Below the pieces are notes generated by a model. That model was given only the letters and a program-made list of their open reading frames with translations. It was not told the origin of the DNA and searched no databases. A program made the translations under genes and the position numbers. A stretch of 55,737 nucleotides of DNA from positions 1 to 55,737 of the IMG/VR virus record IMGVR_UViG_3300043753_000025; one strand, given 5' to 3'. Source of the stretch: a virus (taxonomy: Duplodnaviria > Caudoviricetes). This document shows positions 12,007-54,627 of the stretch, one piece after another. The first letter of the stretch is position 1. Every line of letters starts with the position of its first letter.

Positions 12007-12435
12007 TCAGTCCTCCAATGCTTCGGCCGGGGTGATTTCGCCGCGTGCGCACTGCTCGATCGCGTGGGCGATCTCCCAGCCGTTGCCGGGCAGGTAGTCT
12101 TGGAGGACGCTAACCAGTTGGGCAACGGCGGCCAGGCGCTCGCGAAGCCGGTCCAGCTCGGTCGCGGCGGACGCGGTCTTCTCCCGGAGGGCCCGCCACT
12201 GCCGGTTCCGGAGCCGGAGCTGTGCCCAGAGGTTCTGGAGCTGGGTCGGGTCGGCGCCGGCAGCGCGGAGGCCGCAGCGGAGGGTACGCAGTTCGAGGCG
12301 GGCGCCGTCTCGGTCAGCCACCGCGCGGCGGTCGACCTCGGCACTCATGTGGGCGGGGCAGCAGGCGAACGGGTTGTGGTCCGAGTCGTCGGCCAAGAGG
12401 TAGACCATCTGATCGGGCGGCGTGGTGTCGGTCAT
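12007..12435 (-). CDS. Hypothetical protein
   Basis: GGAGG RBS; 142-aa ORF. Confidence 0.65.
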   Translation of the reverse strand: MTDTTPPDQMVYLLADDSDHNPFACCPAHMSAEVDRRAVADRDGARLELRTLRCGLRAAGADPTQLQNLWAQLRLRNRQWRALREKTASAATELDRLRERLAAVAQLVSVLQDYLPGNGWEIAHAIEQCARGEITPAEALED

Positions 12436-12966: not shown

Positions 12967-13791
12967 TCAGGTCATGCAGTGGCCGGAGTCGCAGGCGCCG
13001 TCGGCTTCGCCGAAGATCAGCGGGAGCGGGTCGACGCCGTCCGGGATCGCCTCACGCAGCGGCCGGTTGTAGGCGGTGAGCCAGACGTGGTCCTTGCCGA
13101 GGTCATCGCGGCGCTGGTTCAGCAACTCCTCCAGCTGGCAGGACTTCTCGAACAGCTCGGGTTCGGTGCGGCGCATCTCGTGCCAGGTCTCTGGCCGGTG
13201 GAACGGGCAGAAGAAGCAACTGGACTTCGGTGGGACGGGCAGGCCGGCACTGCGGATGATCCGGGGGATGTCGCTGCGGCGGATGCCGAGGTCGAGAAGT
13301 GGGTACTCGATGCGCTCGTGGGGTTCGTGGCGGCGGTTGTTGGCGCGGTGGATCTCGTCCACGCTGATGCCGATGCCGACGGTGGCCGGCTGCTCGGCGG
13401 TGGCTCCGCGGCGCTTCAGCTCGCGCCCGATCACCTTGATCTTGAAGTCGGCCGTGCAACTGCGGGTGCCGGGGGCGCCGTTGCTCATGCGGATCGGGAT
13501 CGGCAGCGAGCGGGATCCCGGCTTGGTGAGTCGGCCCCACAGGGTCTCAGCGGTGCCGTCTCGGCGGATGCGGTCGAGGACGGTGAGTTCGAGGCCGTGC
13601 TCGGCGGCGAACGGCTTGGCGTACTCCTCCAGGTACCGGAGGGTGCCGGGGTGCTCGCTGTCGTTGCCGACGTTGGCGAACAGGAACGTGCGGTAGTCGA
13701 TGGTGCCTTGGGCGGCGAGGACGAGGGCGGCGGTGGACTGCCAGCCGCCGCCGAACGAGAACGTCCGTAGCGGCGCTGTGGCGGTGGTCAT
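12967..13791 (-). CDS. PAPS reductase family (PP-loop) protein
   Basis: SFGGGWQS, FANVGNDSEHP, CTADFKIKVI, YPLLD, PPKSSCFFCPF, C-terminal CDSGHC. Confidence 0.85.
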   Translation of the reverse strand: MTTATAPLRTFSFGGGWQSTAALVLAAQGTIDYRTFLFANVGNDSEHPGTLRYLEEYAKPFAAEHGLELTVLDRIRRDGTAETLWGRLTKPGSRSLPIPIRMSNGAPGTRSCTADFKIKVIGRELKRRGATAEQPATVGIGISVDEIHRANNRRHEPHERIEYPLLDLGIRRSDIPRIIRSAGLPVPPKSSCFFCPFHRPETWHEMRRTEPELFEKSCQLEELLNQRRDDLGKDHVWLTAYNRPLREAIPDGVDPLPLIFGEADGACDSGHCMT

Positions 13792-20962: not shown

Positions 20963-21223
20963 TCAGGCGGCGCGGCTACGGCGCCCGCGGGTGGCCGGGT
21001 CGACGTCACCGACCTGCTGGATGGCCCAGATGTGGTCGAGGCGGAACATGTTCTTGCCGCCGACCTTGGTGTGGGGGACCTTCTTCGCGTAGCAGAGGTC
21101 CTTGAGCGACCGCACCGTGTGCGGGAGCCACCCAGCGGCGACGACCTCCTCCGGCGTGTACAGCCGGAGCCGATCAGCGGCGGTGAGCCACTCGGGCGCC
21201 TGCGCGACCTTCTTCGCGGTCAC
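20963..21223 (-). CDS. Excisionase/RDF-like winged-HTH protein
   Basis: LYTPEEV...VPHTKVGGKNMFRLDHI; second gene of early operon. Confidence 0.75.
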   Translation of the reverse strand: MTAKKVAQAPEWLTAADRLRLYTPEEVVAAGWLPHTVRSLKDLCYAKKVPHTKVGGKNMFRLDHIWAIQQVGDVDPATRGRRSRAA

Positions 21224-21426
21224 GACTGTTCCTCTCGGTTGATTGCGGCAACCGACACCGCGAGCCCAGCGGCGATCCGGCGGATTGTGGCTTCGCTGGC
21301 CCCTGCACAACCCCTCTCGACTCGCGAGAGGTAGCCGGGGTTCAAGCCAGTCCGTTGCGCCAAGTCCCTGAGGCTCAATTGTTGAGCCCGTCGGATGGCC
21401 CGGATTGCGTTGCTGTGCGGTGTCAC
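21220..21426 (-). CDS. Cro-like XRE HTH regulator
   Basis: IRAIRRAQQLSLRDLAQRTGLNPGYLSRVERG; divergent from repressor. Confidence 0.88.
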   Translation of the reverse strand: MTPHSNAIRAIRRAQQLSLRDLAQRTGLNPGYLSRVERGCAGASEATIRRIAAGLAVSVAAINREEQS

Positions 21427-21448
21427 GGGAGAAGCAGACCACATCAAC

Positions 21449-21501
21449 CCTCAAGATTCAAGGGGTCTCTCTACGGGATCTCTACGGTCTGAGCCTCAAG
21501 A
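21449..21501. promoter_or_regulatory. Genetic-switch region with direct repeats TCTCTACGG (21468, 21479) and CCTCAAGA (21449, 21494)
   Basis: Direct repeats between divergent cro and repressor. Confidence 0.6.
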
Positions 21502-21627
21502 GTTGTGCCACTGGGGGGATGTGGGGCGCGTGATGCAACACCTATGCGCCCCCATTGAGCCTTAAGCGCAGCTCAAAAGACCGGATCCGGCCTCCGCTGT
21601 TGCATGCGTGTGAGGCATGATGTGCTC

Positions 21628-22152
21628 ATGGAGCGAGACTGGGCCCGGTTCGGACGGGCGGTGAAGGCCGCGCGGGCCGCCGGCGACATGACGCAGGAGG
21701 AGCTGGCCACGGCGGCCGGCGTCGGCGTGTCGACGATCCAGACCCTGGAGCGCGGCTCTCGGCACTATGCGAGGGTCACCGCCAATCACCGGGCTGTCGC
21801 CCAGGCGCTCGGCTGGACCGGAGACAGCGTTGAGCGCGTGCTGGCCGGCGGCGAGCCGACTGTGGCCGAAGCCCCGTTGCAGCCAGTGTCGATGGGGGAT
21901 GCGGCCAGTGCTGCACCGGTCGACGACCTGCTGGACGGGCTCACGGAACGCGCCCGACTCGCACTGCAGGGCGGCACCGTCGTTGACGCGGACGTGATCG
22001 ACCTCGCCCCCGATGACCCGGACTCGGTCGCGGTGCTGATCCTCAAGCGCGGCGACCGGCCGGCGACGACGCCAGAGCAGATGCGGGCCGACCTGAAGAA
22101 GTGGGCCGAGCTGCAGCGCGCTGCCCGACGGATCTTCTCCGACGAGGACTGA
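21628..22152 (+). CDS. Immunity repressor (XRE HTH), probably leaderless
   Basis: VKAARAAGDMTQEELATAAGVGVSTIQTLERG; CATGAT 6 nt before ATG 21628. Confidence 0.85.
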   Translation: MERDWARFGRAVKAARAAGDMTQEELATAAGVGVSTIQTLERGSRHYARVTANHRAVAQALGWTGDSVERVLAGGEPTVAEAPLQPVSMGDAASAAPVDDLLDGLTERARLALQGGTVVDADVIDLAPDDPDSVAVLILKRGDRPATTPEQMRADLKKWAELQRAARRIFSDED

Positions 22153-22286
22153 TCACCAAGTCGACACTTGGGCGAACGCTTTACCATCGGATGATCACAT
22201 TGCGGTGATCAATCATCCGGAACTGTGACAGACTCACCCGTACCTGCGAGGGGGGCACCTGACACAGGTAGAGGGGGCACCGCTTC

Positions 22287-22463
22287 ATGCGGGTCAGACG
22301 CGTTTCGGACATCCCTCACGGCGCCATCTCCTTCATCGACATCGACCCTGACGGGGTGCCGGTGATGTGGGTGAACGCCGCGCTCGTCACGGACGAGCAG
22401 GCCGCCGAGCTGGCCAGACGGCTCAACCCGCCCGGGGGGCAGGCGGGGAAGTTCGCCGCGTAG
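22287..22463 (+). CDS. Small hypothetical protein between repressor and integrase
   Basis: GAGGGGG RBS; MRVRRVSDIPHGAISFIDIDPDGVPVMWVNAALV..., 58 aa. Confidence 0.55.
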   Translation: MRVRRVSDIPHGAISFIDIDPDGVPVMWVNAALVTDEQAAELARRLNPPGGQAGKFAA

Positions 22464-22526
22464 CACATCAAGTCGAGCGGGGCGGGGTCCACGGGCCCCG
22501 CCTGCTCAGCCATGGGAGGGTGCGCA

Positions 22527-23807
22527 GTGGCGTACGCCGAGAAGGTCTACAAGGTCCGCAACGGGAAGCAGACGAAGCAGTACACGTGGAGATCACGGTT
22601 TCTGCTGCCTGACGGCATCAACTACGGCAGCGCGCCGGGGTTCCCCACAGAGAAGACCGCCAAGGAGTACGGGCAGGAGCAGGAAGCCGCGATCCGCGCT
22701 GGCCGGTGGATCGACCCGAAGCTCGCGCAAACCCAGTTCGGGAAGTGGGCCCGCGAGTGGATGGCAGCCAAGGCCCCACGCGGGCGGACGATCACCACCC
22801 GCTGGGGTCTCCTTGACACCCACATCATGCCCAAGTGGGAGCACGTGGCGCTGAGGACTGTCACCTGGTTCGACGCTGAGAACTGGGCCAACGGGATCGG
22901 CGAGACCCACGATGACGTGACGGCCACGCACTGCCTCACGCTGATGTCGCAAATCATGACCGGCGCGGTCGATGCGGGAAGGATCACGGTCAACCCGCTG
23001 CTCGGTCGCCGGCGGAGCCGCACGGCGGCCATCAAGCTGAAGAACCAGACCAAGCTGATGAAGAAGGCCGCCGCCCCCGCGACACCCGAGCTGGTACTCC
23101 GGCTCGCGCGGCGCGTCGGTCCGCTCGACGGGATGCACATCCTCGTCACTGCGTTCCTGGGGCCGCGGTGGGGTGAGGGCTGTGCGCTGACGCGCTCCAG
23201 CCGCGGGCGTCGCGAAGAGGCGTACGGCAAAGGCATGTTCAGCTGCCCGACGCTCCAGATCAGGCAGGAGGTCGCCGAGTATCAGACTCGGGACCCGGCC
23301 ACCGGCGAGAAGGGGCCGATTCACTTCGACCTGGAGCCGGTGAAGACCGACGGCTCGCTCCGGGACATCGACGTGCCGCCCTTCCTCGATGGCCTGCTGG
23401 ACGAGCACGAGAAGCGGCTGAAGCCCGAACGCGATCGCCTGTTCTGCACGCGATCCGGCGAGTGGTGGCGGAACAGCAACTTCGGCAGGCAGGTCATGCG
23501 GCCGGGCGCGGATGGTCGCAAGGCCCTCCCCGCCTCCAAGGGGCACAAGCCCCGAGAGGGCTGGGAGCCGCTGGTGCCCGGGCTCAACATGGACCTGCTA
23601 CGGCACCTGCACGATACGCTTCAGGGGCAGATCAACGTTGCTGACGCGCTGGCCTACGAACAGGCCGGCCACCGGCGACCCGGCATCAAGGCGGTGTACC
23701 AGCACCCGACGCCGGAAGAGCGCCAGCACCGACTCGATGGGCTCCAGAGGATCTTCGAGCGGGCCATGGCGAACCTGGAGTGGGAGAGGATCTGGGAGGA
23801 AAGTTGA
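22527..23807 (+). CDS. int: Tyrosine integrase
   Basis: N-terminal arm-binding domain; GPRWGE, VKT, LLRH, AGH, VYQH; next to attP; GGGAGG RBS. Confidence 0.93.
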   Translation: MAYAEKVYKVRNGKQTKQYTWRSRFLLPDGINYGSAPGFPTEKTAKEYGQEQEAAIRAGRWIDPKLAQTQFGKWAREWMAAKAPRGRTITTRWGLLDTHIMPKWEHVALRTVTWFDAENWANGIGETHDDVTATHCLTLMSQIMTGAVDAGRITVNPLLGRRRSRTAAIKLKNQTKLMKKAAAPATPELVLRLARRVGPLDGMHILVTAFLGPRWGEGCALTRSSRGRREEAYGKGMFSCPTLQIRQEVAEYQTRDPATGEKGPIHFDLEPVKTDGSLRDIDVPPFLDGLLDEHEKRLKPERDRLFCTRSGEWWRNSNFGRQVMRPGADGRKALPASKGHKPREGWEPLVPGLNMDLLRHLHDTLQGQINVADALAYEQAGHRRPGIKAVYQHPTPEERQHRLDGLQRIFERAMANLEWERIWEES

Positions 23808-24093
23808 TCTCCAATATTTCTCCCAAATGATCTTTGGTTCGATCATCTCCGCAGGTAGATGGAGCATTGAGCGGTGGTCTTACAAAGCAGATGTCGGCGG
23901 TTCGAAACCGTCCGCGCCCACCCCTTGACCAGCATAAACGCTGGCATCATCCCAGCTCAGGACCTACTTCGAGGGCTGGGGCGACATTGAACTCCCGGTT
24001 TCTCTACGGTCTGTGACCGATCCTCCTACGGTCTCACTACGCATGATCCACTCCTAAATTCCTCCCAAATGATCTTGGTGTTTCCGCAGGTCA
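23808..24093. mobile_element. attP: arm-type repeats flanking a tRNA-derived core
   Basis: Perfect CTCCCAAATGATCTT at 23820-23834 and 24062-24076, each preceded by a degenerate copy and followed by TCCGCAGGT. Confidence 0.85.
23878..23922 (+). other. attP core = 3' half of tRNA-Val(UAC)
   Basis: CT-TAC-AA loop, AGCAG stem, T-arm GGCGG TTCGAAA CCGTC, acceptor CGCGCCC-A-CC; no matching 5' half. Confidence 0.88.
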
Positions 24094-24119
24094 CAACTTG
24101 GAAGCCGGAACAACGCAGA

Positions 24120-24158
24120 GCGCCGTCTCCCGACTGGAGACAGTCAGGAGACGGCGCG
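24120..24158 (-). terminator. Strong hairpin/terminator
   Basis: GCGCCGTCTCC-n-GACTG GAGA CAGTC-n-GGAGACGGCGC. Confidence 0.7.
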
Positions 24159-24159
24159 C

Positions 24160-24383
24160 GGACACCGGAGTCGAGGGGGGCGGTCTACTTCCCCGGTATG
24201 CGTCCAGCCACCCCCGTCGAACGGCGGAGGGTGCTCACGCCCGAGGCGGGCTAGGATCGCGCGCAGCTAGGCCGCCGGACCCTGCGTCCGCCTCAGGTTC
24301 CCGTCGCAGCGCCCGATGGAAGCGGGCACTGCGACGGGAGAACAAGGTGCCCGGCTGGCCGATCAATTCGGCCGGCCGGGCAT
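24160..24383 (-). ncRNA. Candidate structured RNA / 3' UTR downstream of the peptide gene
   Basis: Adjacent stems at 24347-24383, 24299-24339, 24240-24297, 24210-24233, 24160-24205; no convincing ORF. Confidence 0.35.
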
Positions 24384-24390
24384 GGAGCAA

Positions 24391-24591
24391 TCAGGTGCCC
24401 CAGCTCGTGTCGTCCAAAGACGCACTGAGTGCCGAAGCTGATGCAGCACTGCCGTGGGGCGCCACGGTGCCCCACGAGGTGTCGGCGAAAGAGACATGAC
24501 GCGGAGCCGCGCCAGCCGACAGGCTGAACAATGCACCGATGGCCAGCACAGCCGCGGCGGCCGCGGTGGCGACCTTCTGACGTGCAGACAT
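24391..24591 (-). CDS. Secreted signalling pro-peptide with two DTSWGT repeats
   Basis: GAAGGGG RBS; Sec signal MSARQK-VATAAAAAVLAIGALFSLS-AGA; DTSWGT at 24466-24483 and 24394-24411 (C-terminal). Confidence 0.85.
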   Translation of the reverse strand: MSARQKVATAAAAAVLAIGALFSLSAGAAPRHVSFADTSWGTVAPHGSAASASALSASLDDTSWGT

Positions 24592-24640
24592 GACTCACCC
24601 CTTCCGGTACTGATGGTGGGTTGGATCGTGCGTGGCTACC

Positions 24641-24710
24641 AGCCTGACGATGGTTGACGGTTGGATCAAGTGTTCCCACGGTACCGTTGGAAGTGTGCTC
24701 ATTTGAGCAC
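24641..24710. promoter_or_regulatory. Divergent control region: minus-strand TTGATC-17-CAGGCT promoter, 20-bp palindrome and GTGCTCA-TT-TGAGCAC
   Basis: TTCCCACGGTACCGTTGGAA 24673-24692; inverted repeat 24695-24710. Confidence 0.6.
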
Positions 24711-24738
24711 TCGGACATATGTGGACACTGGGGGGTAA

Positions 24739-25758
24739 ATGACAGGCTTTCAGATCAGTGCCGAGCGCCCGTTTCTCATTCCGGCAGCGCATGACCTGTA
24801 CCTGAGAGTCTTGCGCGGCGAGCTGACAAACCCTCCAGAAAGCCCCGAGCTCGGGCAACTGCTCGATGTTCACCTCCTGGCGCCGGATCCTGACCGGGCT
24901 GGCCACTACCGTGCGCTCGACGTCGGTAGGGCGCTCCGCACCTGGCAGGGCGGGCTGCACACCATGGCATCCAACCTGCTGCTGGAGGCCCAGACCGTAG
25001 AAGCGCAGCTGCAGCCCTTGGCGACCGCCTGGAATCAGGCGCAGGCCGGGAAGGCCTCGGCCCCCGGGGTAGAAGTCGTGCACGGCTACGACGAGATCGA
25101 CCGACGACTGGGCCCGATCATTGCGTCGTGCCGGGTGGAAGCGATGACAGCCCATCCGACCGGGCCGCGGTCGCCCAAGGTCTTGGCGAGGTCGTACGAG
25201 CGGGACATGCCGCTGCTGCGGCGCGGCGCCACGATGAGGACGATCTACCTGCCGGCGGTGCGCGGAGACGCCCCCACGGCACGGTGGGCTCAGACCATGA
25301 CCGAGCAGGGTGTGCAGATCCGGACGAGCACGGATTTCTGTCGGGTGATCATTATCGACTACCACACGGTGATCACATCGGTGCTGCGTCGCGAGGATCA
25401 GATCACCGAGCCGGAGCCCAACGACGCTGCGATGATCATCACGCACCCCGCCCTCGTCGCCCACTGGATGGCCGGGTTCGAGCGAGACTGGGCGCGCGCT
25501 GAGCCCTGGAGCGGCACGCTCACCAAGCCGGCGCCGAAGCTACCGCTGACCCCAACGGATGTGCAGATCTTGGACTGCCTTGCCCAGGGCATGGACCAGG
25601 ATGAAGCGGCTGCCGCGCACCATGTCTCGCGGCGCTATGTCACCGGCAAGCTGGCCGCGTTGCGGGCTGCGACCGGCGTGAAGTCCCACGGGCAGCTCAT
25701 GTTCTGGTGGGGCAAGCACTACGGGGATTACAAGAAGGAGCGGAGGAAGAGGAGATGA
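24739..25758 (+). CDS. TrmB-like sensor domain plus C-terminal LuxR HTH regulator (candidate peptide receptor)
   Basis: LLRRGATMRTIY...GVQIRT...RVIIID...FERDWARAEPW; LTPTDVQILDCLAQGMDQDEAAAAHHVSRRYV...GVKSHGQL. Confidence 0.85.
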   Translation: MTGFQISAERPFLIPAAHDLYLRVLRGELTNPPESPELGQLLDVHLLAPDPDRAGHYRALDVGRALRTWQGGLHTMASNLLLEAQTVEAQLQPLATAWNQAQAGKASAPGVEVVHGYDEIDRRLGPIIASCRVEAMTAHPTGPRSPKVLARSYERDMPLLRRGATMRTIYLPAVRGDAPTARWAQTMTEQGVQIRTSTDFCRVIIIDYHTVITSVLRREDQITEPEPNDAAMIITHPALVAHWMAGFERDWARAEPWSGTLTKPAPKLPLTPTDVQILDCLAQGMDQDEAAAAHHVSRRYVTGKLAALRAATGVKSHGQLMFWWGKHYGDYKKERRKRR

Positions 25759-25996
25759 CCGCCTCGTAGCTGCGGCCGGCGGCGACCAGGTCGATGCGGA
25801 CCTCGCCATCGCGGAGGATGAGTTGGCGGACCAGCTCCAGGTCCGCCAGGAGTCGCCTGTTGCCCGCACGTTTGCCTGGATCGTCAACTGGCAGGGCTGC
25901 GAGCAGCTGTTCCAGCTCGGCGATGGCGGCGGCCAGGGCGTGGTGAATGGTGGGCGACGTGATGCCGTCGACTGTGAGGGTATACGTGGCGCTCAC
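25697..25996 (-). CDS. Hypothetical protein convergent on the LuxR gene
   Basis: GGAG RBS before GTG 25996; 3' end overlaps luxR by 62 bp. Confidence 0.5.
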   Translation of the reverse strand: MSATYTLTVDGITSPTIHHALAAAIAELEQLLAALPVDDPGKRAGNRRLLADLELVRQLILRDGEVRIDLVAAGRSYEAVISSSSAPSCNPRSACPTRT

Positions 25997-26116
25997 GACG
26001 GTGCTCCGGTGCTCAGCCCCCCGAGTTACAGTGAGTGACATGCTATCGAACACCGTTCGATGCACTGGTCATCTACGCGTACAGCATTCCGGTCACGATC
26101 ACGCAACGGTCGACGG

Positions 26117-26356
26117 GTGCCGCCCACCCGCCGACCCGACGACCTCCAGCTCCAGACCCGCCGTTAGGTCGGTGAGCGCATCCAACAACTCCGCGTCGCC
26201 CGCGGCTACAGCCAGGAACGCCTCGGCGAGGCCTCCGCACTCGACCGCCGCACCATCGGCTCGTTCGAGGCGGGCCGCACACCGCCCACCCTGGACGACC
26301 TCGTCGCCATCGCCCGCGCACTCCGGGTCCCCCTCGACGGGCTCCTCTGGAGCTGA
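26117..26356 (+). pseudogene. XRE HTH regulator interrupted by in-frame TAG
   Basis: VPPTRRPDDLQLQTRR*VGERIQQLRVARGYSQERLGEASALDRRTIGSFEAG...; TAG at 26165-26167. Confidence 0.8.
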
Positions 26357-26420
26357 AACAGCCGGCGCGCCCCACGGACGCGCCGGCCAACCCGGGCCCC
26401 GCCGGGCCCGGACGGCGCAA

Positions 26421-26452
26421 GAGCCCCGCCGGACGCCGGTCCGACGGGGCTC
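26421..26452. terminator. Hairpin between convergent genes
   Basis: GAGCCCCG-c-CGGAC GCCG GTCCG-a-CGGGGCTC. Confidence 0.65.
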
Positions 26453-26455
26453 CCA

Positions 26456-26668
26456 CTACTCGAGCAACAGGCCCTCACGGGCCCAGACCGCTCGGGCCGC
26501 CGCGATCCGCTCCCGCTTGGTGCGCCTCCAGGTCAGCCGCGCGGTCTCCTCGCCGGGGGGTTCAGAGACCCGGTAGCAGTTCGGACAGACGTAGCCTCCT
26601 TGCGGCCCGTCCTGCACCGGCGTCCCGCAGGTCTGGCAGTAGCGGCTGTGATGCACATCCTGAGCCAT
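26456..26668 (-). CDS. Zn-ribbon protein
   Basis: CQTCG...CPNC. Confidence 0.65.
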   Translation of the reverse strand: MAQDVHHSRYCQTCGTPVQDGPQGGYVCPNCYRVSEPPGEETARLTWRRTKRERIAAARAVWAREGLLLE

Positions 26669-26677
26669 GGACCCAGG

Positions 26678-26806
26678 CTACTTGGCGAACACCGGCTGCG
26701 GCAGGCGACCGGCGTGGTGGATGACGCCGAGCACTGTGCCGCACACCCCGCAGACCATGGGCTTGCGGGTGGCGTCCATCGCGGATCCGCACTTGGGACA
26801 GGGCAT
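26678..26806 (-). CDS. Small Zn-ribbon protein
   Basis: AGGAGG RBS; MPCPKCGSAM...CGVCG. Confidence 0.6.
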   Translation of the reverse strand: MPCPKCGSAMDATRKPMVCGVCGTVLGVIHHAGRLPQPVFAK

Positions 26807-26905
26807 CTTGAACCTCCTGACTCTGCGCCAGCTCGGGGCCTACCCCCGAGCCACTGTGCAACTTGCAGGACCCGCGCCGGCTTCTCGACGGTGCGGGGGT
26901 GGTGC

Positions 26906-26944
26906 CCCGTGCCAGGGGGCTGCGGGGGCCACCCCTGGCACGGG
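26906..26944. repeat. 13-bp inverted repeat hairpin
   Basis: CCCGTGCCAGGGG...CCCCTGGCACGGG. Confidence 0.6.
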
Positions 26945-27008
26945 AGTCAACGAGAGTTGGCGCCGGCGTCGACCGCGCCGCGCGAGCAGACGGAGCTGTT
27001 CCGGGCAC

Positions 27009-27224
27009 TCAACGGTCCACCTCCCGGTCAGGGCAGATCCCCCCGGCACACTCGCACGGCGACCACCCAGCGGGAATCGCGCGCACGACCGTCGCCGTGC
27101 TGCCGCCACGTACACCCAGGCGGTCGAAGTACCTCGGGTCGTAGTCGTCGAGCGGAGGGTTGGTTCGCTGGGCCCGCGCGCGCATCTCGGCGCGGAGCTC
27201 ATCGGCGGTCTTCGCCAGGGCCAT
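27009..27224 (-). CDS. Hypothetical protein
   Basis: TGATG coupling; C-terminal CECAGGIC. Confidence 0.6.
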   Translation of the reverse strand: MALAKTADELRAEMRARAQRTNPPLDDYDPRYFDRLGVRGGSTATVVRAIPAGWSPCECAGGICPDREVDR

Positions 27225-27451
27225 CAGCCCAGCTCCCCCGGCTCGGCAAGGTGCCGCTGCTGGCAGTCCGCGCACCGTGAGACGCGCTCGTCCCGCACGA
27301 CTCCCTCACCGACCCGGGTGGTCCGCATCTCACCGCGGAACGGCGCGTCCACGGCGCCGCAGCCGCAAGGGGACTGATCAGGACGCCTGCAGGGTGAGTC
27401 CGACGGCAGCCCGGCGGCGGGCTGCGGCACGGACGCCGCGAGATCTGCCAT
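27224..27451 (-). CDS. Hypothetical Cys-containing protein
   Basis: CGCG...CADC. Confidence 0.55.
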   Translation of the reverse strand: MADLAASVPQPAAGLPSDSPCRRPDQSPCGCGAVDAPFRGEMRTTRVGEGVVRDERVSRCADCQQRHLAEPGELG

Positions 27452-27493
27452 GCCGAAGACGGTAGAGAGAAGGGCAATCCGAGCACCACAAGT

Positions 27494-27511
27494 GTGCGCA
27501 AACTTGCGCAC
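27494..27511. promoter_or_regulatory. Palindromic operator-like site
   Basis: GTGCGCAA-AC-TTGCGCAC; related TTGCA(C) half sites at 26855-26866 and 29143-29192. Confidence 0.5.
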
Positions 27512-27513
27512 TG

Positions 27514-28371
27514 TCACCCAAGAGAGGTGATCGCTGCCGTGATCAGGGCCCTCGCCGCGGCCCCGTAGACCGCGAGCTCCTCCAACTCGGTGAACGCCCG
27601 CACGTACTCCGCGACCTCTCCAGGGCTGGTCACCGTCAGGTGGGCGGAGACCAACTCCACATTGACCTGGGCGTCGTCGTAGACCGTGAAGGACTCTGTA
27701 GGCCAGCCGCCACCACGAATCACCCCGAGCGGGATGATGCCGAGGCTGACCGACGGCGTCGAGGCCAATGCGATCAGCTGCCCGAGCTGCGCGGCCATCA
27801 CCTCCGCATCACCGATCACGCTACGAAGCACCCACTCCTCAATGACGACGGCGAAGCGATGATGCCCCGTGTGCAACACCCGCTGGCGGTCCATGCGAAC
27901 CGCCAGCGCCTCCTCCACGTCGTCAACGACGCCCCGCAGCCCCACGATCGTCTCCAGGACCGTCCTCGTGTAGGCGGGCGTCTGCAGCAGCCCGGGGATA
28001 ACCCACGACTGGTACATGCGGAACCGCCGGGTGCGCTCGAAGAGCGGCCGGACAGACTCCTGGGCGTGCTTCAGCCCGGGGCGTTCGAGGCGCCGCCACT
28101 CGACGTAGGCGCTGTCGATGCCCCGGGCAGAAGCGATCAGGTCCGCCGCCTGGTCAGGCACGCCACAGTGCAGCGTCCAGAGCCGAATGTCAGCGTCGGA
28201 GGGCAGCGCACGGCCGTGCTCGATGCGCGAGCACTTCGACTCGTGCCAGCCCGCCTCGCGCGCCAGGTCTCGTGCCGTGAGCTGCGCGTCCTTCCTGATC
28301 TCGCGCAGGCGCTGACCCAACGCAGCCCGCGCCTCCTGGACGCTCGATGATGGCGACGGCTTCTGAGACAT
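27514..28371 (-). CDS. XRE HTH plus DUF5753 (Scr1-like) regulator
   Basis: LREIRKDAQLTARDLAREAGWHESKCSRIEHG; IPGLLQTPAY; VIEEWVLR; SFTVYD; AAARALI. Confidence 0.9.
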   Translation of the reverse strand: MSQKPSPSSSVQEARAALGQRLREIRKDAQLTARDLAREAGWHESKCSRIEHGRALPSDADIRLWTLHCGVPDQAADLIASARGIDSAYVEWRRLERPGLKHAQESVRPLFERTRRFRMYQSWVIPGLLQTPAYTRTVLETIVGLRGVVDDVEEALAVRMDRQRVLHTGHHRFAVVIEEWVLRSVIGDAEVMAAQLGQLIALASTPSVSLGIIPLGVIRGGGWPTESFTVYDDAQVNVELVSAHLTVTSPGEVAEYVRAFTELEELAVYGAAARALITAAITSLG

Positions 28372-28384
28372 GATCTTGCACCGG

Positions 28385-28900
28385 TCAGGCCGGTTCGTAC
28401 TCCTCATGCGGGACGGAGCGGCCCCAGACCGCCTCGAACGCCGTAGCGCACAGCCGGACAACCTCGGGTGCGACGATCAGCTCATGGTCGACGAAGTCCC
28501 CATCGCCGTTGAAGTGGTTGAGCAGCAGGGTCCGGCCGTCGAAGAGCCAGAAGTCGTTGCCCGGCAGGGCCAAGTCGGTCGCGCGCCGGCGCGGCAGCCA
28601 CCTGACCTGCTCGCCCATCGCGACGTTGTGCCGATCGGTGACCTCGTACTCGAACCGCACATACTCGCTCACCGGCTCGGACACGATCCGGGCCCGCCGA
28701 ACCTGGACGCCGCGGCCCGTGGTGGCAGCCATGAGCTTCAGCCACGGACTCTCTGCCCGGCCAGACGACTCAACGTTGCCGAGCTGCCAGGCCAGGAACA
28801 TCGGGTCGTCCAACATGTAGCCGTCGCGCATCTCCAGATGGACAGCCGAGTGCCGGCAGGCCGCCATGAGCTCCTCGATCGAGGGAGCCTCAGGCACCAC
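28385..28900 (-). CDS. DUF6879-like protein
   Basis: SAVHLEMRDGY, RRARIVSEPVSEY, GEQVRWLPR, GNDFWLFD. Confidence 0.85.
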   Translation of the reverse strand: MVPEAPSIEELMAACRHSAVHLEMRDGYMLDDPMFLAWQLGNVESSGRAESPWLKLMAATTGRGVQVRRARIVSEPVSEYVRFEYEVTDRHNVAMGEQVRWLPRRRATDLALPGNDFWLFDGRTLLLNHFNGDGDFVDHELIVAPEVVRLCATAFEAVWGRSVPHEEYEPA

Positions 28901-29102
28901 CCACCTCCGGGAAGAACTTCATCATGCGCTTCGGGAACTCGACAACGTCCTCGTGGTCGGGCAGGTCAAGCTGGGATCGGCGCTCCACATCCAGCACCTT
29001 CAATCCCTGGACCAGGTAGTTGTCGGTCACGTCGTCGTAGTACAGCGTGGGCGACTTGCCCTCCGGGCTCTCCGGGTCCTGGCCGAGCTTGTGCAGTGCC
29101 AT
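28890..29102 (-). CDS. Small conserved protein of the DUF6879/XRE module
   Basis: GGAGG RBS; LGQDPESPEGKSPTLY...YLVQG. Confidence 0.75.
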   Translation of the reverse strand: MALHKLGQDPESPEGKSPTLYYDDVTDNYLVQGLKVLDVERRSQLDLPDHEDVVEFPKRMMKFFPEVGGA

Positions 29103-30313: not shown

Positions 30314-31123
30314 CTACGCCGCCGGATCGAGCGGCAGCTGTCCGTCGAACCGCAGCGGTGCCAGGCCGCCCAACCGCGGGTGCAGGTACCGCAGCCCGGC
30401 CACCGTGATCCGCACCTGCGGACGGCCCAGCACCGCCTCCCCGCTGTGCGGATGCGTGTACGCGCTGGCCCGCTCCACTACGCGCCCCGCATCCACGTGC
30501 CGCGCGTACGGCACACCCTTGGCATCTACCATCCGCAGCTCCCGCAGCGACCGCATCAGCCGGTTCTGACCGGTGCTGATCGCCGGGTCCCGGGACAGGA
30601 TCGCCGCGGCGTCCCGCAAGCTGTAGTCGCCCGCCGCTGACGCCAGCGCATCCCACGCCGCCGCGGCCGGCTCCAACTCCGCCACCCGCCCGGTCAGCTC
30701 GGCCCGCTCCGCCCGCAGCCGCTCGGCCTCCTCCTCCGCCGCCAGCGCCAGGCGCAGGATCTCACCCCGCGACAGCTCCGCCGGCCGGGCCACGCTGTAC
30801 GAGCCGGTGCGGCGGATCGACGGGATCACCTCGGCCGTGATCCAGCGGCGGAAAGCCCGGGCCTCCGGCTTCCGACTGTCCAAGATCAGGTCATACAGGC
30901 CGGACTCGTTGGCCGCGTGCGCCTGCTGCCGCCGGCCGAGCGAATCGGTGACCTCGACGGTATCGAGGTCACCCGCGTTGAGGCGCCGGGCCGCATCGGA
31001 CGGGTTGCCGATGCCGAGCACCCGACAGACGTCGGCGACCACGAACCACGGCTCGCCGTCGATCGTGACCGCCCGGACCTGCTGGCTGGTCTCCGGGAAC
31101 TCGAAGGGGATAATGGTGCTCAC
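30314..31123 (-). CDS. Phage antirepressor (BRO-N plus ANT/KilAC)
   Basis: GEPWFVVADVCRVLG...NESGLYDLILDSRKPEARAFRRWIT.EVIPSIRRTGSY; GQNRL...ITVAG. Confidence 0.92.
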   Translation of the reverse strand: MSTIIPFEFPETSQQVRAVTIDGEPWFVVADVCRVLGIGNPSDAARRLNAGDLDTVEVTDSLGRRQQAHAANESGLYDLILDSRKPEARAFRRWITAEVIPSIRRTGSYSVARPAELSRGEILRLALAAEEEAERLRAERAELTGRVAELEPAAAAWDALASAAGDYSLRDAAAILSRDPAISTGQNRLMRSLRELRMVDAKGVPYARHVDAGRVVERASAYTHPHSGEAVLGRPQVRITVAGLRYLHPRLGGLAPLRFDGQLPLDPAA

Positions 31124-54550: not shown

Positions 54551-54627
54551 TGGTTGGCTCGGCAGGATTCGAACCTGCGACGCACGCCTTATGAGGGCGC
54601 TGCTCTACCGGGCTGAGCTACGAGCCA
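54551..54627 (-). tRNA. tRNA with CAU anticodon (elongator Met or Ile2)
   Basis: TGGCTCG/CGAGCCA acceptor, GCTC/GAGC D-stem, CT-CAT-AA loop, GCAGG TTCGAAT CCTGC, encoded ACCA. Confidence 0.93.

Follow-up and report, generated by a model that had tools for sequence, protein, structure and literature searches.

The virus record IMGVR_UViG_3300043753_000025 of IMG/VR (55,737 bp, analysed at its full length and called the window below) carries, next to its integrase gene and attachment site, a small gene for a predicted secreted pro-peptide with two copies of the hexapeptide DTSWGT. This gene lies head-to-head with one for a 339-residue regulator in which a TrmB-like candidate sensor region precedes a LuxR-type helix-turn-helix (HTH). 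We read the two genes, with a little better than even confidence, as a self-contained cassette of a secreted peptide and its cytoplasmic receptor, which would resemble the RRNPP and arbitrium systems in its working without being homologous to them. Peptide communication through cytoplasmic receptors, including that between phages, has so far been described only for the Bacillota and their mobile elements; as far as the sequences allow a comparison, the cassette presents a known signalling logic in an unrelated receptor family, a new phylum and new phages. The evidence comes from the recurrence of the same two-gene arrangement across chromosomes, plasmids and phages, and from the pattern of selection on the short repeated core of the peptide.

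The pro-peptide, the regulator and their pairing

The pro-peptide gene occupies 24391-24591 on the minus strand (stop codon 24391-24393) and encodes the 66 residues MSARQKVATAAAAAVLAIGALFSLSAGAAPRHVSFADTSWGTVAPHGSAASASALSASLDDTSWGT. The basic N-terminus (R4, K6) is followed by a hydrophobic core some 17 residues long and, at residues 26-28, by A-G-A, and the ORF has no cysteine; judged by eye and by a simple rule of thumb rather than by a dedicated predictor, residues 1-28 (24508-24591) form a signal peptide with a predicted cut after A-G-A. The first DTSWGT copy (24466-24483, minus strand) is encoded as GAC ACC TCG TGG GGC ACC and the second, at the C-terminal end of the protein (24394-24411, minus strand), as GAC ACG AGC TGG GGC ACC, so that two codons differ, including a serine drawn from two different codon boxes. 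An earlier note, made from the letters of this DNA alone, had described a 66-residue open reading frame (ORF) with a Sec-type signal and two differently encoded DTSWGT hexapeptides, one of them C-terminal; translation and codons agree with that description, the signal peptide being accepted by the same rule of thumb. The pro-peptide has no match in PHROGs, Pfam or NCBIfam, and a homologue search with its 66 residues recovered itself alone, which is expected of a short, fast-evolving sequence and is uninformative as to novelty. The pro-peptides of some relatives (loci L030 and L016; loci are numbered in this form throughout) have twin-arginine-like starts.

The regulator gene (24739-25758, plus strand) is divergent from the pro-peptide gene and separated from it by 147 bp, the head-to-head arrangement that the earlier note had reported. 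Taken singly, the window regulator matches nothing at threshold in Pfam (E 0.01), NCBIfam or PHROGs, and neither gene of the pair has a PHROG family. A profile of 83 family members compared with PDB sequences aligns at positions 30-251 with residues 45-263 of archaeal TrmBL2 (5bpd/5box/5bqt, E 3.2e-10) and at positions 259-320 with the NarL/GerE HTH (E 2.1e-9). The protein can thus be divided into a TrmB/TrmBL2-like N-terminal and central region, the candidate sensor, and a LuxR/GerE-type HTH at about residues 265-325; no membrane segment was noticed. All nine close family members have a GerE match in Pfam at E<=1 (best 1e-5), and the nearest Atlas clusters are Actinomycetota regulators annotated as TrmB/GerE. 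The Pfam TrmB family (PF01978) is found in 10-17% of the members of some neighbouring Atlas clusters and is absent from the 25 of 27 Pfam families listed for the nine close members; some family members go by the database name 'TrmB family ... sugar-binding domain-containing'.

The same searches speak to other receptor types. No TPR or RRNPP family occurs among the listed Pfam matches of the window regulator or of the nine members, and Rap, AimR, PlcR, Rgg and PrgX are absent from the best 60 of 89 PDB profile matches (E<=1), which consist of TrmBL2, NarL/GerE-type HTHs, small winged-helix proteins of the ArsR and AdcR/ZitR types and one designed-repeat entry at a sub-threshold stretch. Neither the window regulator nor the nine members has a listed Pfam match to an autoinducer-binding domain, and the sole label of that kind on the regulator is a 13.5-bit match restricted to the HTH end. 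By sequence profiles, the assignment of a TrmB-like region plus a LuxR HTH without TPR repeats, as first proposed in the earlier note, therefore holds.

The pairing was followed through homologous loci with one fixed detector applied throughout, which calls ORFs with a signal-peptide-like start and a D-x(1-3)-W-x(0-2) motif at the C-terminus. It finds exactly one ORF in the 55.7-kb window, the pro-peptide itself; shuffled versions of the window gave a mean of 0.05 matches (40 shuffles), and 400 kb of arbitrary Streptomycetaceae chromosome from four genomes gave one. At 27 of 34 non-redundant loci the detector was positive, once each and always beside the regulator. All ten loci of close regulator homologues possess a divergent, upstream peptide ORF built like that of the window, in which a signal-peptide-like start and a linker lead to two D-[ST]-x-W-G copies, the second at the extreme C-terminus; nine of these loci come from Kitasatospora genomes and one from a viral contig with direct terminal repeats (DTR), and eight are distinct, three being copies from one genome. 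At the loci of more distant paralogues in four Kitasatospora genomes the peptide is present in seven of nine cases with other cores, either repeated (for example DWHWG three times, DSGWN twice and GIGWD twice) or single and C-terminal (for example DDINWG, DDFHW, DDFSWS and DDIRWD). Ten new loci retrieved at E<=1e-60 from a 151-genome sample yielded eight with a peptide, and the two peptide-less ones, inspected with flanks of only 1.5 kb, hold two tandem regulators each.

The arrangement extends to mobile elements. The cultured Streptomyces phage Chymera, described as a resident prophage of S. venezuelae ATCC 10712 (PMC10117723), has the gene order immunity repressor, integrase, gp31, gp30, gp29. 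Here gp29 is a regulator 28% identical to that of the window and gp30 a 59-residue ORF with a signal peptide, by the same rule, and two copies of DPGWG; both are annotated as hypothetical. Searched against 401 Streptomycetaceae genomes, the DNA of the Chymera module has a single distant relative. A family regulator is also carried by 54 Streptomyces or Actinacidiphila plasmid records, and of the six plasmid loci examined four have the peptide, with the cores DSDWG (two copies), DTAWG (three copies, pSAM1), DSAWG (two copies) and DIQW (four copies); at one of the two peptide-less plasmid loci an insertion sequence element sits in the upstream position. For the wider family we picked by hand 40 loci down the E-value list in 31 genomes, one per locus or array and with their flanks unseen, which is not a random draw; the peptide was recovered at 18 of these 40, 16 under the strict definition and two under a loose one with cores lacking the aspartate (NTIWD five times, and GNYGWGD). 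Loci L105 and L044 likewise have a peptide ORF.

The paired ORFs are immediate divergent or convergent neighbours of the regulator (20 divergent and nine convergent among the first 29 loci, with gaps of 22-410 bp), and all told they stand beside homologous regulators at more than 45 loci with diverged nucleotide sequences. The pairing is far beyond chance and is not universal. The earlier note had mentioned similar pairs of a regulator and a short DxxW ORF in streptomycete genomes and had proposed scanning the flanks of receptor homologues for them; the pairs do occur in chromosomes, in plasmids and in Chymera, and the scan was positive from the close loci outward to the wider family. Dropped before counting were L001 and L002 (the window itself), L022 and L023 (duplicates of L010 and L003), L106-L111 (duplicates of earlier loci, verified for L108-L110 and judged by coordinates for L106, L107 and L111), L112 and L113 (further copies in the genome of L110), and L006 and L007 (copies of L008 in one genome). 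As a separate observation, L064, L067 and L068, from different genomes, have longer Pro/Thr-rich precursors that end in the same single P-D-T-W-G-W-G tail; with 660-960 bp between precursor and regulator, another gene may intervene.

Counted in cluster representatives, the regulator family itself has 4099 members at E<=1e-3, of which 1402 reach E<=1e-10 and 195 reach E<=1e-30. At the last threshold it is present in 29 of 31 Streptomycetaceae genomes, with 1-14 copies each. By these sequence searches the cassette is part of a large family of the Streptomycetaceae, most of which is chromosomal and some of which is borne by plasmids and phages.

Among 27 pro-peptides with two to five copies, the four-residue core (x-x-x-W) is identical within the precursor in 26, and 17 different cores are found between loci. 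Comparison of the core codons (n=140) gave 21 synonymous differences and one non-synonymous, as against five synonymous and 52 non-synonymous in 70 codons of the two residues just upstream of the core; in this count L031 and L033 were omitted as near-duplicates of L030, and L105 and L044 were not included. The short core is under purifying selection, with copies kept alike within a precursor and drifting between cassettes, a behaviour that by analogy is that of the 'pherotypes' of peptide pheromones. The argument from codons by which the earlier note had seen selection on the peptide in the window alone thus extends to the 27 precursors. The note's candidate for the signal, (D)DTSWGT, survives in part: the conserved unit is D-x-x-W-(G), and not necessarily the whole hexapeptide.

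Across 46 pairs (L033 omitted as a near-duplicate of L030, L105 and L044 not included), core distance correlates with the distance between sensor regions (Mantel r 0.33, p 0.0005), and continues to do so given the HTH distance (partial r 0.32, p 0.0005), whereas with the sensor distance given there is no such relation to the distance between HTHs (partial r -0.15). The co-variation of receptor and peptide that the earlier note had put forward as a check is thus seen, and it fits peptide-sensor co-evolution as a weak piece of evidence.

Proposed working of the cassette and competing explanations

In the reading that we favor, the 66-residue precursor would be exported via Sec and lose its signal peptide after A-G-A, and extracellular proteases would release from it two short D-T-S-W-G(T) peptides, one internal and one C-terminal, as the repeat and the selection pattern suggest. 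The peptide would build up with the density of producing cells, enter through the oligopeptide permease of the host and bind the TrmB-like domain of the 339-residue regulator. Binding would then alter the occupancy, by the LuxR-type HTH, of a palindrome at 24695-24710 that overlaps the regulator's own promoter, and the outcome would be autoregulation of the pair together with some further output. The cassette stands on that side of the phage attachment site (attP) which holds the accessory genes, and its expression is probably from the prophage.

This palindrome lies in the divergent control region between the two genes (24592-24738, 147 bp). It is perfect, with 7+7 nt around a 2-nt centre; a conserved TAnnnT box precedes it by about 8 nt, and the ATG of the regulator follows after about 28 nt. 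A nine-locus alignment of the close loci has a 14-16-bp palindrome of the TGC...GCA type, with the sequence varying between loci and the symmetry being kept, and a palindrome scan recovered it in several close loci and in L025/L026. It is likely to be the regulator's operator at its own promoter. The promoter boxes of the control region were read by eye, and a consensus scan of 23800-26500 gave no sigma-70-type site. A direct repeat, GGTTGGATC, is found twice in the control region (24619-24627 and 24659-24667); it occurs only there and is a weak signal, as 7 of 100 shuffles also gave two matches.

Several points weigh against a dedicated pair of signal and receptor. On the side of the regulator, the HTH matches of the window protein alone are sub-threshold (GerE E 0.031), and TrmB-type effector domains are known for binding sugars rather than peptides. 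As to the peptide, the copies of L046 are non-identical (DLRW/DMRW), as are those of L105 (DTAWGT/DTGWGV), whose regulator, at 70% identity, is the closest relative of the window's. Pairing is missing at 22 of the 40 wider-family loci, which have no such ORF within about 1.5 kb, and at L018, L021, L028, L029, L035 and L036; roughly every second member of the wider family may be a 'solo' receptor or respond to a signal of a kind that escapes the detector. In tandem arrays up to seven regulators go with one peptide gene, so the relation between regulator and peptide is not strictly one-to-one. The Mantel evidence is weak because linked genes share descent and because the sensor region is longer and less noisy than the HTH. 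Finally, the palindrome has no second copy in the window at up to three mismatches, which leaves no output gene in view. With respect to the layout of the arrays, L013 (G002:C18) has up to seven tandem paralogues, the run at L047 (G008:C1) spans about 8 kb and L014-L016 are likewise arrays; the single secreted D-x-x-W gene stands at one end, convergent with the last regulator, unlike the layout of the divergent one-to-one pairs.

The earlier note had gone further and proposed specifically a phage switch between lysis and lysogeny. In such an arbitrium-like counter, peptide from earlier infections or from lysogens would bias the phage to lysogeny or keep prophages uninduced, a use of the cassette that we regard as unlikely, though it is the strongest of the competing explanations. 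In its favor, integrase and attachment site adjoin the pair in all three of the window, the DTR contig L012 and Chymera, phages in which the regulator gene is followed by a small gene of the XRE repressor type. Within the genus, the close clade has a scattered distribution (7 of 167 genomes at E<=1e-70), of the kind that prophage cargo would be expected to show. In the window, the tyrosine integrase (22512-23807, plus strand; phrog_1, E 3.9e-18; Pfam Phage_int_M, E 1.5e-4, below its cut-off) is followed directly by the attP core (23869-23927, plus strand), which repeats the 3' part of the host's tRNA-Val(TAC) gene. The pair stands beside both of these, as the earlier note had it; the candidate cro-like/cI-like switch, a divergent XRE pair (21223-21450, minus strand, and 21604-22152, plus strand), lies on the far side of int and attP. 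After integration the peptide pair comes to lie at the opposite end of the prophage from int and the cI/cro-like pair, among accessory-looking genes (XRE-DUF5753, DUF6879). Moreover, the palindrome is unique to the pair, with nothing similar at 21223-22152 or upstream of the Ant-type gene (30317-31123), and, being single in the genome and within the pair's own intergenic region, it links no life-cycle gene to the regulator. The adjoining small XRE gene has a premature TAG in the window phage, and no aimX-like output was identified. Since the family is overwhelmingly chromosomal or plasmid-borne, its ancestral role would not be phage-specific. With this distribution, the accessory position and the single candidate operator, the specific claim of a lysis-lysogeny switch finds no support.

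A still less probable explanation is that the regulator merely controls the peptide, which would act elsewhere, either as an extracellular effector (a decoy or blocker of superinfection at the cell surface, an antimicrobial or a morphogenetic peptide) or as a signal to another sensor in the membrane. The pairing and the shared control region would suit a relation of regulator and target equally well, the arrays with many regulators and one peptide are unlike one-to-one pairs of receptor and ligand, and roughly half of the family loci are without an adjacent peptide. What speaks for a self-sufficient pair instead is that the two-gene unit moves among phages, plasmids and chromosomes while its neighbours change. 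Further, it is the sensor region, not the HTH, with which the cores co-vary, and known pairs of pheromone and receptor follow the same pattern of a short, diversifying secreted repeat peptide beside a regulator that has a ligand-type domain.

We consider it very improbable that the small ORF is the precursor of a ribosomally synthesized and post-translationally modified peptide (RiPP), for example with a modified tryptophan, and the regulator that of its pathway. Repeated short cores and an invariant tryptophan at the C-terminus of a small precursor would fit this, and the pheromone ComX offers a precedent for a modified tryptophan; on the other hand, a Sec-type signal peptide is unusual in bacterial RiPP precursors, and no modifying enzyme travels with the pair, its neighbours in the window being the att region, an ORF of 122 residues (ORF122) and the small XRE gene, and varying elsewhere. 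That the 66-residue ORF is a chance, unexpressed frame in GC-rich DNA can practically be dismissed: its G+C content at third codon positions (0.70 vs 0.83-0.92 in neighbour genes) is what such a frame might have, but ORFs of the same build beside homologous regulators at more than 45 loci, the excess of synonymous differences in their cores (21 vs 1), a background of one match per 400 kb and the ribosome-binding-like motif GGAAGGGG, read by eye ahead of its ATG, all stand against it.

Relation to known signalling systems

The pair of secreted peptide and cytoplasmic receptor that we favor can be compared with several known systems. Mature RRNPP pheromones are described as coming from the C-terminus of Sec-exported pro-peptides (PMC11343458, PMC10075063), and tandem pheromone copies are reported for some phage Phr pro-peptides (PMC11343458). 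With the RRNPP(A) systems the cassette shares, in anatomy only, an adjacent small pro-peptide gene with a putative short mature peptide at or near its C-terminus; their receptors are built of TPR repeats, of which the cassette regulator has no signal, and it falls outside the RRNPP class because its receptor is not a TPR protein. Like arbitrium (AimR-AimP-AimX), it would, as far as its genes suggest, unite a pro-peptide with a DNA-binding receptor in the cytoplasm and be carried by a phage, with a presumed mature peptide of 5-7 residues at the extreme C-terminus and a place in the lysogeny-related part of a temperate genome. It differs from arbitrium in its TrmBL2-like receptor with a C-terminal LuxR/GerE HTH and no AimR-like match, in having divergent genes rather than an operon, in the two copies within its pro-peptide and in its actinomycete host; moreover, no aimX-like output was found here, and the conserved hairpins 3' of the peptide gene resemble a terminator or 3' untranslated region (3'-UTR).

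By analogy, the cassette resembles phage-carried Rap-Phr at least as much as arbitrium, because of its accessory position at the prophage end and its mainly chromosomal and plasmid-borne spread. The Rap-Phr systems of Bacillus phages, plasmids and integrative and conjugative elements are likewise mobile two-gene cassettes with many paralogues per genome, in some cases multi-copy pro-peptides (PMC11343458), and pherotypes that diversify between cassettes. In contrast to the cassette regulator, Rap is a TPR protein that acts by protein-protein contact and not through an HTH, and there is no sequence relation between the two; the repeated core of the cassette, for its part, always has tryptophan and usually starts with aspartate. 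The Rgg/SHP and ComR/ComS (XIP) systems of streptococci also have a signal at the C-terminus of a small precursor, a cytoplasmic transcription factor, uptake by an oligopeptide permease and often divergent genes, but their receptors are RRNPP-type proteins (an N-terminal HTH plus TPR repeats) from a different phylum. SHPs start with an acidic residue and XIPs contain tryptophan, and the precursors of both systems are not known to have a classical Sec signal peptide or repeats.

Among regulator families, the family profile matches TrmBL2, to which the cassette regulators add the C-terminal LuxR/GerE HTH and the pairing with a secreted peptide. TrmBL2 is a chromatin protein, and we know of no ligand for it. 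With LuxR receptors and solos the cassette has in common the C-terminal GerE HTH, a palindromic candidate operator and many members without an adjacent signal gene; unlike in these, an autoinducer-binding domain is not detected, and the presumed signal is a gene-encoded peptide rather than an acyl-homoserine lactone. The gamma-butyrolactone/ArpA systems, the textbook quorum sensing of Streptomyces, belong to the same host group and likewise direct a diffusible signal to a cytoplasmic DNA-binding receptor, but that signal is an enzyme-made small molecule and the receptor of TetR type, whereas the candidate signal here is ribosomally encoded.

Searches of open-access PMC and bioRxiv texts turned up nothing that describes such a module for actinomycetes or for phages of actinomycetes, subscription journals being outside this scope. 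The signals of Actinomycetota are characterized as typically small molecules (PMC10075063), and the words Streptomyces, actinobacteria and actinomycete do not occur in a 2026 review of phage communication (PMC13389391). If the individual steps proposed above hold, the cassette would represent a new class of bacterial and viral peptide signalling, and if peptide and regulator are indeed signal and receptor, peptide signalling between phages or between prophage and host would have arisen independently on an unrelated receptor fold. The family would then provide Streptomyces-family bacteria with many parallel peptide channels (1-14 receptor genes in 29 of 31 genomes; 1402 clusters at E<=1e-10), and there would be synthesizable candidate ligands for regulators of about 330 residues that are now annotated as 'hypothetical' or 'helix-turn-helix'.

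In S. coelicolor, an oligopeptide from outside the cell is considered to enter through the BldK oligopeptide permease as a signal for development (PMC11303876). The present finding bears on the old question of what that signal is. To our knowledge, no gene has been assigned to it. One could go further and suppose that the Streptomycetaceae with their phages and plasmids own a large class of gene-encoded peptide pheromone systems, with Sec-exported D-x-x-W-(G) repeat precursors, intracellular receptors of the TrmB-like/LuxR-HTH type and many pherotypes, in which temperate actinophages such as the window phage and Chymera would sense the density of related lysogens or infections and chromosomal members would be candidates for the BldK-imported signals; we hold this broad picture tentatively, as somewhat short of an even chance. 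The idea is directly testable, as the same module is present in the prophage Chymera of a model strain, S. venezuelae ATCC 10712.

The phage, its attachment site and the surroundings of the cassette

The window has direct terminal repeats and about 70% G+C. Judged by its set of structural and replication genes (large terminase, major head protein, tape measure, Ant-type anti-repressor, RecE-like exonuclease and replication initiator) together with the tyrosine integrase, the window phage is a temperate, siphovirus-like phage. A megablast search of window positions 22000-27000 against phage records gave no match. The attP core is 95-96% identical over 53-59 nt to tRNA-Val(TAC) genes of four Kitasatospora genomes, and given this match to the 3' part of the gene the host is very probably a Kitasatospora. 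The nearest regulator homologues agree with such a host, being found in a Kitasatospora viridis record (70% identity) and in other Kitasatospora (47-55%). In Chymera, the annotated immunity repressor occupies the position equivalent to that of the divergent XRE pair of the window.

Related elements integrate at different targets: the window phage at the 3' end of tRNA-Val(TAC), L004, L011 and L012 at the 3' end of a serine dehydratase gene, and in L006-L009 the module lies behind a third host gene. In L011 a complete serine dehydratase gene (feature at L011 1735-3246) precedes the module, and in L012 (feature at L012 1807-3500), a viral contig of a free phage, the order is integrase, a copy of the serine dehydratase 3' end and then the module; hence, the module directly adjoins the att site in these elements despite the differing targets. 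Upstream of the integrase, L012 also has an ORF (1331-1846) weakly similar to an IrrE/ImmA-type M78 peptidase (E 8.7e-6), which hints at an induction switch of the ImmR/ImmA type in that relative.

Between attP and the 3' end of the pro-peptide gene are two very stable hairpins on the minus strand. One is situated just 3' of the gene (24348-24382, with 15-nt arms); the other (24299-24339, with 17-nt arms and a 7-nt loop), the first in window order, has a predicted energy of about -35 to -37 kcal/mol and is conserved in all nine close loci compared. A consensus structure of these loci has compensatory changes in 9 of its 26 predicted pairs, all nine of them within the 24299-24339 hairpin, and the hairpin model matches all close loci plus, weakly, one site behind the peptide gene of L032. 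In seven of the nine loci the minus strand, that of the peptide mRNA, folds more stably, since its U.G takes the place of a conserved C.A of the plus strand. An Rfam search of window positions 21000-29000 gave no match at E<=1. The peptide transcript probably has its terminator or 3'-UTR in these two hairpins, where the prophage will end after integration; the 24299-24339 hairpin could alternatively be an insulator at that end or a small RNA. An apparent second copy of the hairpin in L008 was rejected, being an artefact of the scaffold next to a run of N. Upstream of the 24299-24339 hairpin there are conserved boxes, one of them TAGGAT near 24270-24275.

On the other side of the cassette, ORF122 (25697-26065, minus strand, 122 residues) is convergent with the regulator gene and overlaps its 3' end by 62 nt. 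It is syntenic in seven of the eight distinct close loci (tblastn E 4e-7 to 8e-18) and has no match in Pfam, NCBIfam or PHROGs and no usable one in the Atlas. Beyond it lies the small XRE-type HTH gene (26117-26356, plus strand; phrog_3/8 repressor-type HTH), which is also found downstream of the regulator in the close loci and in Chymera (gp28). Its homologues have a GTG start about 25 codons upstream and a sense codon at the position of the window's in-frame TAG (26165-26167), by which the gene of this phage, beginning with a GTG, is interrupted; the interrupted gene may be a pseudogene, a variant of the metagenome assembly or a case of read-through. Several close loci also have large XRE-HTH proteins of about 440-550 residues 1-3 kb downstream of the module (L004 7289-8599, L005 6037-7410, L009 6875-8521 and L012 7624-8937), the remainder of each being without a Pfam match.

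Further along in the window, 27514-28900 on the minus strand encodes an XRE-HTH/DUF5753 protein (315 residues) and then an overlapping DUF6879 protein (171 residues). The same pair lies near the module in L011, and it is probably an accessory two-gene prophage system. At window positions 12151-12227, 54551-54627 and 12970-13791 the phage also carries genes for tRNA-Gly(CCC), tRNA-Met(CAT) and a phosphoadenosine-phosphosulfate-reductase-like protein (phrog_424).

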